A DNA stretch of 51,038 bases. Origin: a virus. Taxonomy: Duplodnaviria > Heunggongvirae > Uroviricota > Caudoviricetes. The stretch lies in IMG/VR virus record IMGVR_UViG_2778261009_000008, positions 1-51,038 of that record, one strand, 5' to 3'. A program made the position numbers and the translations under genes. The notes below the pieces were generated by a model. That model searched no databases and was not told the origin of the DNA. It saw only the letters and a list, made by a program, of their open reading frames with translations. The stretch's first letter is position 1, and each line of letters opens with the position of its first letter. Positions 7,463 through 13,899 of this stretch are shown here, one piece after another.

Positions 7463-8209
7463 ATGAAAAACATTGCGGCAGTTGGGGTTCTTGAATGTAT
7501 TCGCAGACTTGCACCACTGGGGGCGGTTCCACCGTACCGGACGGTGGAGGAGTGGCGGGAATGGCAACTTGCTGAAGGACGAAAACGCAGCGAGGAGATT
7601 AACCGCCAGAATCGCCAGTTGCGGGTGGAAAAAATCCTGAATCGTTCGGGCATCCAGCCTCTGCACAGCAAATGCTCGTTTGCAAATTATCAGGTGCAGA
7701 ACGACGGGCAAAAATACGCGCTGAGCTAGGCCAAATCCATAGCTGACGAACTGATGACCGGGTGCACGAATTTTGTGTTCAGCGGTAAAACCGGCACCGG
7801 GAAAAATCACCTTGCAGCGGCGATGGGCAACCGGCTGATGGTGAAGGGGCGCAGCGTGATTATCGTCACCGTGTCTGACGTCATGAGCGTGTTGCATGAC
7901 AGCTACGACAACGGCAAATCCGGGGAAAAATTTTTACAGGAGCTTTGCGGGGTTGATTTGCTGGTCCTGGATGAAATAGGCGTCCAGCGGGAGACGAAAA
8001 ACGAGCAGGTGGTATTGCACCAGATAATTGATCGCCGGACAGCATCACTGTGCAGTGTTGGGATGTTAACAAACCTGAATCATGCCGCAATGAGTACGCT
8101 TCTTGGTGAGAGGATTATGGACCGCATGACCATGAACGGTGGTCGATGGGTGACGTTTAACTGGGATAGCTGGCGTCCAAATGTCAGCAATATGAGGGTT
8201 GTGAAGTAA
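7463..8209 (+). pseudogene. DnaC-like helicase loader interrupted by an in-frame TAG (7727-7729)
   Basis: ORFs 7463-7729 and 7754-8209 are in the same frame and together align along the length of DnaC (…NRSGIQPLHSKCSFANYQ… then Walker A FSGKTGTGKNHLAAA, Walker B LLVLDEIG); the TAG sits where DnaC has a Lys codon. Confidence 0.65.
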
Positions 8210-10557: not shown

Positions 10558-10857
10558 ATGGCGTTAACACACCACGAACTCTGTCAGATTGCGTACAAGT
10601 TCCTTAAGCGCAACGGGTTCAAGGTTTGCTTTCATGACCGCTTTGTTGCTGTAACCAGTACCGGAGAACAGCCAGATGCTATGGGATTCAGAAATTCAGC
10701 ATCATGCCTGATAGAGGCGAAGTGTTCTCGTGCTGACTTGTTGGCAGATAGAAAAAAGCGTTTCCGTAAAAATCCCTCATTTGGCATGGGCGACTGGCGA
10801 TTCTTTATTAGTGAGCCGGGAATTATTTCAGTTGAGGATTTACCTCCCGGCTGGTGA
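10558..10857 (+). CDS. Small PD-(D/E)xK / VRR-NUC-like nuclease-fold protein
   Basis: 99 aa; motif …QPDAMGF…(12)…CLIEAKC… matches a PD…E.K catalytic core; start 1 nt after the preceding stop. Confidence 0.5.
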   Translation: MALTHHELCQIAYKFLKRNGFKVCFHDRFVAVTSTGEQPDAMGFRNSASCLIEAKCSRADLLADRKKRFRKNPSFGMGDWRFFISEPGIISVEDLPPGW

Positions 10858-11144
10858 TTACTTCACGTTGTTAACGGAAGAGTACGGAAAGTACATGGAT
10901 GGCCCAGGGGTAATTGCTGTTGGGGTAATCCTGACGATAAGCCATTTACTGGAAATAAGCAGGTTGAATGCGATTACATGTTATCTGCATTAAGGCGCAT
11001 GGAGTTGAGAGGGCACCTTAATGAAATATATGACGGTGTAATTGTTAATAAGAAAGAAGGAAACGCGGCATGACCACTATTACCAAAGATTGACTGCTGA
11101 CAATCCAGCATTGGCGCGAAACATACGGACCGGGTAGCAACGTT

Positions 11145-11657
11145 GTGCTTCCAGCAGAAGAAGCGGAAGAGCTGGCACGGATTGCGCTGGCATCACTGGC
11201 AGCAGTATCGGATGAACGAGCAGCCTATGAATTATTTATGGAGAAGCGTTTCGGAGAATCTGTAGATCGCCGCAGAGCAAAAAATGGCGATAGAGAATAC
11301 ATGGCATGGGATATGGCGCTTGGCTGGATTATCTGGTGTCACCGCGCCGCCATGCTTCAGGCTGGAAACTTTCGGGAAAATAAGGGTTCGTCAACCAATA
11401 ATTTTCGGGAAATCTCGGAAACGTCAACCAACTATCCGGTAACTCCGGATGGTTGGATAAGCTGTAGTGAGCGAATGCCGGATGATGGTCAGCACGTAAT
11501 TATTTTATGTGATGGCGCATTCGTTCTTTATGCGCAATATCGAGACGGTGAGTTTTTTGATGTAGTCCGTAATGGTGATGAATTTTTCGAAACACAGAGC
11601 CGCAATGTAACCGGCTGGATGCCGCTACCAGAACCGCCGCAGGAGGTGCGCCAATGA
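11145..11657 (+). CDS. DUF551-domain phage protein
   Basis: 170 aa (GTG start); C-terminal …WISCSERMPDDGQHVIILCDG…VTGWMPLPEPP is the typical DUF551 signature. Confidence 0.65.
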   Translation: MLPAEEAEELARIALASLAAVSDERAAYELFMEKRFGESVDRRRAKNGDREYMAWDMALGWIIWCHRAAMLQAGNFRENKGSSTNNFREISETSTNYPVTPDGWISCSERMPDDGQHVIILCDGAFVLYAQYRDGEFFDVVRNGDEFFETQSRNVTGWMPLPEPPQEVRQ

Positions 11658-11737
11658 ACTGGCCTGAAGCATTTGCAATTACAGGCGTTGCTATGGTTAT
11701 CGCTTTTTTAATATATGTTATTTGTCGGTGGGGGTAA
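11654..11737 (+). CDS. Small hydrophobic peptide (27 aa)
   Basis: MNWPEAFAITGVAMVIAFLIYVICRWG with perfect SD AGGAGG 7 nt upstream; single predicted TM helix; below track cutoff. Confidence 0.45.
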   Translation: MNWPEAFAITGVAMVIAFLIYVICRWG

Positions 11738-11772
11738 AAACGTTCGCCGGGATTCACACCAAAGGAGGGAAT

Positions 11773-11877
11773 ATGTCGGATGATATCTCACTGGCAATGG
11801 AAGGCGCTCTGGCCGTTATTGTTGTTGTGGGTGTTTACTGCCTGGTCGTGCTTTTGATGGATCGTCTGGGGAGCTGA
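11773..11877 (+). CDS. Small hydrophobic peptide (34 aa)
   Basis: MSDDISLAMEGALAVIVVVGVYCLVVLLMDRLGS with SD AAAGGAGGG upstream; single TM helix. Confidence 0.45.
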   Translation: MSDDISLAMEGALAVIVVVGVYCLVVLLMDRLGS

Positions 11878-12043
11878 ATTCATTACGATATGGGAATTTC
11901 CATATCGGGTAAAAAGGGGGGAGTAAAACGAGAGTCAAGTAGATGTATCGGTCAAAAATTGAGCAGTAAAAGGGGCGATATTAATCGCCCTTGAGTTGTA
12001 TTAGTTATCATTTTGTTGCCTTGCCGGGAGTAAGTCGAGCTTG

Positions 12044-12688
12044 CTATTTAACTGTCCATGCCGGGCTGAAATCCACTTCCTGAAATAACTCAGTTAGCCC
12101 GCTAATTTGTTTAAGTCTCAGTACTTCATCCTGATCCATACCCAACTCAGTGCCAATGCGTTCATCTGCCCATCCCAAGCGTGAAAGATCTCTTACAATA
12201 TCAGACACTGAGTCTATCTGGTGTTTCCCCCTAGCCCGGTTATGTCGAATGGTTGCGGCAATGCGTGCGGCTTGCCCTTTTCTCTCTGGATTAATACAGG
12301 CTACAGGCAGCCAGCCCCTCAGACGTTTTCCTGTAACTGATTCTCTGCCCAATAACTGACGATGAAAACCATCCACCACCAGATAATGATTCTTCTCCTC
12401 TGACACCACCACCGGTTGTGTGAAACCATCTTTTTCCAGTGACTGCTTCAGCAGTTTCTTCTCACTTGGTGCCATGACATTGGGGTTATAATCGTTGGCT
12501 ACCACCTCATCCGCTTTCACCCACAGCACACAGTCTACAGGCTCCTGTGCAAAAGGACTGACTTCATGCAGTACCCCGCGCAGATGGTTAAGGGCTCGTA
12601 TGGACTCTTCTTCGGGCTGTTCCCGACTGAAGTACTGACGAATCATGTTGCTTAGTACATCCATCTCAGGCGTCACAGAATCCCCCAT
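12044..12688 (-). CDS. ParB-like nuclease domain protein (IbrB-like)
   Basis: 214 aa; ParB/Srx-fold motifs (…YLVVDGFHRQ…, …IRHNRARG…); overlaps the upstream PAPS-reductase-like gene. Confidence 0.8.
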   Translation of the reverse strand: MGDSVTPEMDVLSNMIRQYFSREQPEEESIRALNHLRGVLHEVSPFAQEPVDCVLWVKADEVVANDYNPNVMAPSEKKLLKQSLEKDGFTQPVVVSEEKNHYLVVDGFHRQLLGRESVTGKRLRGWLPVACINPERKGQAARIAATIRHNRARGKHQIDSVSDIVRDLSRLGWADERIGTELGMDQDEVLRLKQISGLTELFQEVDFSPAWTVK

Positions 12689-13899
12689 TCTTTCCTCCTT
12701 TCCTTCATTCGTTGCAGATAACGCTCATAGTGCCGGGGTTTGTTCGGACTGAAGGAGAGGGTCCGGCACCAGAAGTCATTCTTTATGAGCGTCTTACAGA
12801 TACGTCGCCAGGACGGGATATCCCGGCTCCCCAGGTCATTCTCCTGTTCATCCGGGATATCATCCGGGAAGCCCCGCGTCTGATACCAGCGCAGGTAGAC
12901 TGCAATTTTGTTACGGTAATGTTCTGCTGTTCTTTCTGGCATAACATCCAGCATGAACATTGCGTAGCTGCGCCAGGTATGATGAGCCGGTTTTGTGATT
13001 CGTTTACGCAGAGCAAAATAGGCACCGCTTTCATTGGCATAAAGAGCGCCACTGGCAGCCCCTGACACTCGCTCACACATCCTGGCCCAGGTTTCCGGCT
13101 CCAGAACATGGTAAAGCCACAGCCCCTTACGCTGTTCCGGGCCAAAGGGCTCACAAACACGCATGTTGCGTAACGACACTCCGGCACGGTACATTAGGTC
13201 GTACAGGGGATTGTAGATGGCGCGGGTTCTTGAGTTATACGTCCATATATCATTTGTTTTCCAGTCATACAATGGATACATGGTGTAGTAAAAACCATCG
13301 GGTGAAGCGGTGGTCCAGGGTTTATCATCTGCATATCTCAGTTTGCGCTGAGACACCAGTCCCATAAAGCGATTGAGCGATTCATCAGCACGAACACCAG
13401 TTAGTATTCCCACTCCACATCGGTTACCGGCAAACCAGGAAGAAAATGCCGGAACAAATTCTTCAAACGTCATGGCATACCGATAAAATGGGAAATACGA
13501 CATATCTGTAATAGCGTCATCTGGTGGCTGACGAACCCATTCTACACCTGGCTCCCAACATATCCATTCTGGCTGAAACTGAGAGACGCCATTTACCGTA
13601 GTCAGAGGAAGCGCTACCCAGTAAAAATTGTCTGTCACATGCCGGTACATTTCCCTCATCTTTTGGATATGATTAATCGTGCACTGATATTGGGCTTCCC
13701 AGTCAATGAATAAAACCGAAAAACGACGTTTTTTTCTACTGGCGACTTCTGCCACAAGATGGAAAAGCACAGTAGAGTCTTTGCCACCAGAAAAAGACAA
13801 GCAGACCTCATTAAACGTTTCGAACAACCATTCAATGCGATGGATTGCTGCTGACAGAACATTTTCCCCTGTGCTGATTTTTGTTATGGTTCCTGACAT
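12673..13899 (-). CDS. PAPS-reductase-like PP-loop ATP pyrophosphatase (IbrA-like)
   Basis: 408 aa; PP-loop motif SFSGGKDS near the N-terminus; AT-rich promoter-like region upstream (13900-14050). Confidence 0.85.
   Translation of the reverse strand: MSGTITKISTGENVLSAAIHRIEWLFETFNEVCLSFSGGKDSTVLFHLVAEVASRKKRRFSVLFIDWEAQYQCTINHIQKMREMYRHVTDNFYWVALPLTTVNGVSQFQPEWICWEPGVEWVRQPPDDAITDMSYFPFYRYAMTFEEFVPAFSSWFAGNRCGVGILTGVRADESLNRFMGLVSQRKLRYADDKPWTTASPDGFYYTMYPLYDWKTNDIWTYNSRTRAIYNPLYDLMYRAGVSLRNMRVCEPFGPEQRKGLWLYHVLEPETWARMCERVSGAASGALYANESGAYFALRKRITKPAHHTWRSYAMFMLDVMPERTAEHYRNKIAVYLRWYQTRGFPDDIPDEQENDLGSRDIPSWRRICKTLIKNDFWCRTLSFSPNKPRHYERYLQRMKERRKEWGIL

Follow-up and report, generated by a model that had tools for sequence, protein, structure and literature searches.

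The stretch of DNA considered here is a window of 51,038 nucleotides (nt), positions 1 to 51,038 of the IMG/VR virus record IMGVR_UViG_2778261009_000008, which is a lambdoid prophage of Escherichia coli of the Shiga-toxin (Stx) type. In its nin region, between the replication genes and Q, lie two very short open reading frames (ORFs), referred to here as pep1 and pep2. A sequence-only reading of the window had described them as ORFs of 27 and 34 amino acids, each encoding a single hydrophobic helix, and both are present as described, as judged from the sequence, from Kyte-Doolittle profiles and, for pep2, from an AlphaFold2 model. Both are genuine genes, and we consider it probable that they encode very small single-pass inner-membrane proteins that would act as non-toxic accessory modulators or partners. 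The features of the locus are collected in Table 1.

Table 1. Features of the pep1-pep2 locus, in window coordinates
Feature	Position	Strand	Evidence and remarks
Ea22-like mosaic gene with C-terminal DUF551 domain	11145-11657	+	Pfam DUF551, E=2.7e-20
Shine-Dalgarno sequence of pep1, AGGAGG	11641-11646	+	7 nt before ATG; read from sequence
pep1	11654-11737	+	27-residue single-helix micro-protein, MNWPEAFAITGVAMVIAFLIYVICRWG; stop codon 11735-11737; ATGA overlap with upstream stop
Modest RNA hairpin around pep1 stop codon	11725-11750	+	Fold z=-2.0; within pep1-pep2 spacer
Shine-Dalgarno sequence of pep2, AAAGGAGGG	11761-11769	+	GGAGG ends 4 nt before ATG; kept in all loci
pep2	11773-11877	+	34-residue single-helix micro-protein, MSDDISLAMEGALAVIVVVGVYCLVVLLMDRLGS; stop codon 11875-11877; annotated coding sequence
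Palindrome/hairpin CGATATGGGAATTTCCATATCG, 22 bp, directly after pep2 stop	11886-11907	+	Folding free energy -11.7 kcal/mol, z=-4.1; no U-tract
Decayed copy of hok promoter region	11908-11945	+	Alignment with O157, 933W and pPE4 loci
hok remnant, codons 3-12	11962-11992		26/28 identities; Smith-Waterman score 39 vs 16±2.2 in shuffles (maximum 26)
Bidirectional terminator hairpin formed by hok remnant	11971-11992	both	Folding free energy -18 kcal/mol, z=-4.1; terminator scan on both strands
IbrB/IbrA cassette, inverted	12044-13899	-	Convergent with pep1 and pep2

Each peptide contains one hydrophobic stretch, with a mean Kyte-Doolittle value over 19 residues of 2.6 for pep1 (residues 6-24) and 2.9 for pep2 (residues 11-29). 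The AlphaFold2 model of pep2 consists of a single helix spanning residues 3-33, with a predicted local distance difference test score (pLDDT) of 91, and the homologue of pep2 known as XECs145 has been predicted to be an inner-membrane protein (PMC5597208). The strong Shine-Dalgarno (SD) sequences claimed for both ORFs are indeed there; the accompanying statement that they are ideally spaced does not hold for pep2, whose GGAGG lies slightly too close to the start codon. Sites of the form GGAGG-N3-9-ATG occur 18 times in the 51-kb window, counting both strands, and two of these 18 belong to pep1 and pep2. In 50 mononucleotide shuffles of the window, no hydrophobic ORF of 20-50 residues with such a site was obtained. 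The arrangement of pep1 and pep2 is no product of chance.

Both reading frames are conserved in homologous prophages, as assessed by the ratio of nonsynonymous to synonymous polymorphism (pN/pS) and by substitution counts along spanning trees. For pep1, the variable columns among 23 haplotypes are distributed over the three codon positions as 12/11/23, and pN/pS is 0.31 in the proposed frame, compared with 0.81 and 1.44 in the other two. The minimum spanning tree of the same 23 haplotypes contains 74 synonymous and 79 nonsynonymous changes, where the expected synonymous fraction is 0.23 (p=1.6e-11). For pep2, pN/pS is 0.21 in frame and 0.69 and 2.1 out of frame, and the spanning-tree test yields a synonymous to nonsynonymous ratio of 24.5:15.5 (p=5e-6). 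Between the pep2 allele of the window and the commonest one, 8 changes are synonymous and 3 nonsynonymous. For both genes the synonymous excess is confined to the proposed frame. We conclude that pep1 and pep2 are both under purifying selection as coding sequences.

pep1 is a selected, conserved coding gene that is almost never annotated. Its start codon and the TGA stop of the upstream DUF551 gene share nucleotides, in the configuration ATGA. This overlap is kept in 165/165 pep1 copies, that is, in all loci fetched, and it is found behind at least four unrelated upstream C-termini; in the first four loci fetched, the tblastn match to pep1 begins exactly at the overlap in each case. Every variant of pep1 is preceded by a purine-rich SD, including those with a different coding sequence upstream. 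In the window, the pep1 ribosome-binding site is contained in the last codons of the DUF551 gene (..PPQEVRQ, then stop). The proteins encoded upstream of pep1 are mosaic and Ea22-like; most of them end in DUF551 (..HWMPLPEPPQEV[RN]Q), three other unrelated tails are also seen, and the mosaic junctions fall immediately before the pep1 SD. In two loci (L091 and L092), only a 20-30-nt remnant of the DUF551 gene end, SD included, precedes pep1. Synthesis of pep1 is predicted to be coupled to the upstream Ea22-like/DUF551 gene by termination-reinitiation at the ATGA overlap; that is, through this coupling to an early gene, pep1 would be made whenever the upstream gene is translated. The pep1 proteins comprise at least 18 variants, nearly all of 27 residues, in which M1, W3, P4, A6 and G11 are invariant. 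The family pattern is M-x-W-P-E/D-A-(F/I), followed by a hydrophobic helix of about 17 residues that includes the invariant Gly11, and the C-terminal tail is usually CRWG.

For pep2, the 143 copies sampled comprise 10 protein variants and 15 nucleotide variants, and in 14 loci the gene starts with GTG instead of ATG, still a valid start codon. The 35-nt spacer between pep1 and pep2 is nearly invariant, with 2 of 35 columns variable among 43 haplotypes. Translation of pep2 is supported by published ribosome profiling (RIBOseq). The same gene is listed as XECs145 among 465 RIBOseq-supported intergenic ORFs of the O157:H7 strain Sakai (Hücker et al. 2017, PMC5597208); it occupies the same position as pep2, after the DUF551 gene and pep1, and the Sakai allele is identical to pep2 at 31/34 residues. 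In that work XECs145 was given a longer upstream start, resulting in a protein of 54 residues that overlaps pep1, whereas pep2 as defined here has 34 residues; the conserved SD and the ATG or GTG start support the 34-residue form. In lysogeny broth (LB), XECs145 showed a transcriptome value of 79.1 reads per kilobase per million (RPKM), a translatome RPKM of 346.1, a ribosomal coverage value (RCV) of 4.35 and a coverage of 0.99; short annotated genes had a mean RCV of 1.55 in this medium (PMC5597208). In brain heart infusion (BHI), the corresponding values were 121.3, 150.1, 1.14 and 0.84, and under cold/osmotic stress they were 73.3, 1.1, 0.01 and 0.37 (PMC5597208). According to these ribosome-profiling data, pep2 is efficiently translated in growing O157:H7 lysogens. 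Neither pep1 nor pep2 is listed in the supplements of the EDL933 translatomics study (PMC4765031).

Peptides of this kind had been suspected to be missed by annotation. This is the case for pep1, which was not called by the Prokaryotic Genome Annotation Pipeline (PGAP) in the two RefSeq genomes inspected and has an entry, under the name 'hypothetical protein' or 'bacteriophage protein', in just a few GenBank records. It is not the case for pep2, which, besides being catalogued as XECs145, is annotated by PGAP (WP_072149359.1 for the window allele, and WP_001278453.1) and appears in UniProt as 'uncharacterised protein'. A search for papers whose main text gives the sequence of pep1 or pep2 found none.

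The two genes differ in how widely they are distributed. A tblastn search with pep1 against 50,697 phage records produced 92 matches, at 48-67% identity, and more than 512 copies were confirmed in IMG/VR. pep1 is present in 933W and other Stx phages, where it is located in the exo-xis region, and in the virulent myovirus Av-05 (Vequintavirinae); in the VT1-Sakai variant, C24 is replaced by F. A 24-residue relative, MSWPEAFAIVGVAMAIAAIFIFWG, is encoded by the P1-like phage-plasmid SJ46 of Salmonella (L181, 1182-1256), also with an ATGA overlap. The gene upstream of it encodes an unrelated protein of 86 residues and is located one gene downstream of a DUF551 gene. Thus, the pep1 family reaches P1-like elements, and the CRWG tail is not essential. 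When one genome per species was scanned with strict patterns, pep1 was found only in Escherichia, Shigella and two short, contaminant-looking contigs. These contigs, labelled as a Segatella copri metagenome-assembled genome (L089) and as Xanthomonas pisi (L090), carry a pep1 like that of E. coli Stx phages; L090 also carries hok, and L089 ends earlier. They probably result from assembly or binning contamination.

pep2, by comparison, gave no tblastn match in the phage collection, and an exhaustive HMMER scan of 1.84 billion representative proteins returned six matches, all of them at least 82% identical. The existence of a deep pep2 family was therefore rejected; pep2 is a young orphan restricted to E. 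coli. The 241-nt block that contains both genes occurs in 674 of 5426 complete E. coli genomes, i.e., in about one in eight, and often in several copies (1467 places in total, the median per genome being 2 and the highest number 5). The genomes that carry it are mostly Shiga-toxin-producing E. coli (O157, O145, O111, O104:H4). The window's own allele of the block is rare, at least 99% identity being found in only 9 records.

The gene order around the peptides was compared with that of a genome showing 99.9% identity over a 1-kb query (11100-12100) enclosing both ORFs. This order begins with the repressor, cro-like genes, a YdaT-family gene, the replication genes, DUF1627, DUF4406, DUF4752 and the Ea22-like gene; it continues with the DUF551 gene, a 105-nt gene for a 'hypothetical protein' that corresponds to pep2, IbrB and IbrA on the opposite strand, DUF968, RusA and the Q antiterminator. 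In the PGAP annotation of this genome, the DUF551 gene starts at about 11094 in window coordinates. The sequence-only reading had placed the peptides at the end of a nin-like operon, convergent with an IbrAB-like pair. The nin region and the convergence were correctly identified; however, DUF968, RusA and Q continue on the plus strand beyond the inverted IbrAB genes, and the nin operon therefore does not end at the peptides.

O157:H7 prophages share the backbone of the window and carry hokD where the window has IbrAB, and most pep1 loci carry hok/sok downstream. In Sakai-type prophages hok/sok comes after XECs145, whereas in the window IbrAB comes after pep2. In 933W-type phages, about 10 nt separate the stop codon of pep1 from the inferred hok promoter (TTGCGG..TAGAAT). 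Within the decayed copy of this promoter region in the window, GGGTAAAAA repeats the sequence around the pep1 stop, and GAGAGTCAAGTAGATG is the counterpart of GAGAGTTAAGTAGAAT in 933W and O157. Homology to the hok-bearing O157 prophages stops at about 11943, judging by the extent of the megablast match. Beyond this point a remnant of hok codons 3-12 survives (match at 11962-11991); in the window, hok/sok was evidently displaced by the inverted IbrAB cassette. The terminator formed by this remnant separates the nin genes from the IbrAB cassette. pep1 and pep2 sit at an accessory-gene insertion site, which in related prophages holds hok/sok.

The alignment of these loci also bears on the origin of pep2. 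The pep2 block is absent from 933W, from pPE4 and from locus L087, in which pep1 abuts the hok promoter. Together with its SD and the 22-bp palindrome, pep2 makes up an insertion of about 175 bp, flanked by a short GGGTAAAAACG repeat. pep2 is thus carried on a discrete mini-cassette inserted between pep1 and the hok/sok promoter. The 22-bp element has perfect palindromic symmetry in the O157 alleles (CGATATGGGAATTCCCATATCG); it might stabilise RNA, serve as a binding site for a protein or mark the end of the cassette. Lambdoid morons are accessory cassettes that were acquired independently and lie between conserved genes. The pep2 cassette resembles them in being an insertion relative to 933W-type phages, in being flanked by a short repeat and closed by a hairpin, and in that its homologue is expressed in lysogens. 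It differs from classical morons in that no promoter of its own was detected, in that its hairpin lacks a U-tract, and in being far smaller. A derivation of pep2 from hok was considered and set aside, the best local match being a 7/21 hydrophobic one with E ~2.8.

Work by Hemm, Storz and colleagues on E. coli K-12 has characterised small inner-membrane proteins of at most 50 residues, such as AcrZ, MgtS, KdpF and CydX. pep1 and pep2 resemble these proteins in size, in having one hydrophobic helix with short polar ends, in having an SD of their own, in the case of pep2 in being translated in growing cells, and in that they often go unannotated. Both peptides probably belong to this known class of small membrane proteins. 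They differ from the four examples in that they have no sequence similarity to them and are phage-borne and multi-copy, whereas the latter are chromosomal core genes; pep1 differs further in being translationally coupled to a soluble-looking upstream protein. By analogy, the mode of action adopted here for pep1 and pep2 is that of AcrZ, MgtS, KdpF and CydX, namely binding to a larger membrane protein and tuning it. That is, both peptides would insert into the inner membrane as single helices and there modulate a membrane protein or complex, or partner with it, as AcrZ, MgtS or KdpF do, without acting as pore-forming toxins. Both genes are accessory cargo that Stx-type lambdoid prophages carry in their nin/ea accessory region.

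Several observations weigh against this interpretation. No significant profile match was found for either peptide in Pfam, PHROGs v4, NCBIfam or PADLOC; the only signals were sub-threshold noise (PTR2 at 17 bits, for a cut-off of 27, and phrog_38566 at E=0.027). Shortened alleles occur for both genes: a pep1 of 25 residues, ending ...VICR, is found in 9 copies among loci L007-L086, and a pep2 of 32 residues in 4 loci. All relatives of pep2 are at least 82% identical, so that its selection test draws on a shallow sample, with about 40 substitutions. The promoter scan predicted no plus-strand promoter nearby that could account for the transcription of pep2 in lysogens. The RIBOseq reads assigned to XECs145 may be shared among several near-identical prophage copies, and its expression may stem from defective or spontaneously induced prophages. 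Lastly, the published set of ORFs was limited to at least 30 residues (PMC5597208), a range that excludes pep1.

The most obvious alternative is one that the sequence-only reading had already raised, namely that the peptides are membrane-active toxins. They would then be of the type I toxin-antitoxin kind, similar to Hok, Ldr, Ibs or TisB, or else some other killing or lysis peptide, held in check by an RNA or by low expression. Like Hok, they are small hydrophobic membrane peptides, their size and single helix recall type I toxins in general, and a genuine hok/sok pair is their immediate downstream neighbour in most related prophages. In addition, the minus strand has two pairs of sigma-70-like hexamers (11797-11770 and 11738-11710) from which an antisense RNA spanning the start of pep2 could in principle be transcribed. 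However, promoter-like sites are not enriched on this strand (4, vs 2.4±1.5 in shuffles), and the minus-strand RNA shows neither a notable fold (z=-0.59) nor a terminator; the notion of an antisense regulation of pep2 is thus unsupported. Nor is there an Rfam match at E<=1 in the pep1-pep2 region. Neither peptide has significant sequence similarity to Hok, and neither is accompanied by a mok-like leader frame, a detectable Sok-like antisense RNA or a long folded mRNA. Hok, Ldr and TisB typically have a charged or polar tail, which both peptides lack. The way in which the two genes are expressed also differs from that of Hok: their SDs are strong and exposed, pep1 is coupled to an ordinary early gene, and the homologue of pep2 is actively translated, its RCV of 4.35 in exponentially growing cells indicating unrepressed translation. 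Finally, a single genome can hold as many as five copies of the pair. On account of the translation of pep2, the multiple copies, the exposed SDs, the coupling of pep1 and the missing antisense signal, the toxin interpretation is disfavoured, and we regard it as quite unlikely.

The regular association of pep1 with an Ea22-like mosaic gene, through an ATGA overlap that is never broken, raises another possibility: pep1 could serve the upstream protein specifically, as its membrane anchor or as a partner subunit, made in roughly matching amounts by virtue of the overlap, and the two would act together, for instance in the bias between lysis and lysogeny that has been reported for Ea22. Consistent with this, the pair moves together across the nin region, the exo-xis region, a virulent myovirus and a phage-plasmid, and Ea22 proteins have been reported to be pro-lysogenic (PMC10834534); the Ea22 protein of phage lambda itself lacks the DUF551 signature (PMC10834534). 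The C-terminal domain upstream of pep1 is, however, inconstant, with three unrelated tails besides DUF551. In SJ46 the upstream gene encodes a different protein altogether, in L091 and L092 hardly anything of the DUF551 gene is left, and distant DUF551 genes in Salmonella and Klebsiella phages have no pep1. The variety of upstream C-termini weakens the case for an Ea22 partner, and we consider this role unlikely. It might also be argued that the peptides are translated by-products with no protein function, and that conservation here concerns the DNA or RNA, as a recombination linker joining mosaic modules, as the context of the hok promoter, or through an anti-polarity effect of translation. 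The position of the mosaic junctions immediately before the pep1 SD would fit this explanation, as would the spacer, which is more conserved than either ORF, the lack of pep2 relatives beyond a narrow clade, and the shortened alleles of both peptides. Against it, third codon positions take up a disproportionate share of the substitutions, a preference for synonymous changes is seen in the proposed frames only, the start codons and SDs are maintained, and pep1 retains its motif and length at 48-67% amino-acid identity despite many nucleotide changes. The frame-specific synonymous excess makes a pure DNA- or RNA-level explanation insufficient, and we hold it to be very unlikely. A more far-reaching proposal is that pep1 represents an unrecognised family of phage membrane micro-proteins of 24-27 residues, whose synthesis is obligatorily tied to that of Ea22-like early proteins and which is conserved in Stx phages, virulent myoviruses and P1-like phage-plasmids alike. 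Such a family would have a specific role in the phage, possibly exerted together with pep2, e.g., as a membrane tether or relay for Ea22, in superinfection exclusion, or in protection against the downstream Hok. We give this proposal only a small chance of being correct. The probable interpretation is still that pep1 and pep2 encode non-toxic, single-pass accessory membrane proteins.

Many accessory genes in the Stx prophages of enterohaemorrhagic E. coli are uncharacterised, and some of them influence lysogeny, induction or toxin release. To these the analysis adds pep1, a widely conserved and essentially unannotated gene of 27 codons, always coupled to Ea22-like genes, for which a part in the lysis-lysogeny decision has been suggested. 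It also adds pep2 as a young orphan with efficient translation in O157:H7, already catalogued but uncharacterised, as XECs145 and as a hypothetical protein in PGAP annotation, and the occurrence of both in about one in eight complete E. coli genomes. Both are concrete cases of micro-proteins that escape standard pipelines; the advance is incremental unless a function is found.

Some further observations concern the genes around the peptides. The C-terminal motif ..PLPEPPQE(V) of DUF551 is encoded by CCGCCGCAGGAGGTG (11630-11657 in the window), which doubles as the SD of the next gene. This sequence is kept in the DUF551 genes examined from Klebsiella, Salmonella and E. coli phages, but not in Salmonella SEN34 or the P22-like phage 22. 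The idea that a transmembrane micro-ORF generally accompanies DUF551 was rejected, since none is present in Salmonella SEN34, the P22-like phage, Skate, Klebsiella SBP or E. coli K1H; no pep1-like transmembrane micro-ORF was found at the K-12 gene yfdS (YfdS) either. As distant DUF551 genes lack pep1, it is not a general partner of DUF551. In the Klebsiella phage vB_KpnM_IME346 (L178, 912-968), an 18-codon ORF with a GTG start, MDYFLLCVGVVIWVAYLS, begins 5 nt beyond the stop codon of the DUF551 gene; its product is hydrophobic but not similar to pep1, and the ORF may be there by chance. Farther upstream, the PGAP annotation of the 99.9% identical genome reports a DnaC-like ATP-binding gene with an internal stop (L001 2364-3110, roughly 7463-8209 in the window) and a frameshift in a small hypothetical gene (L001 5459-5637, roughly 10558-10736). 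Judging by these calls in its close relative, the prophage may be defective.

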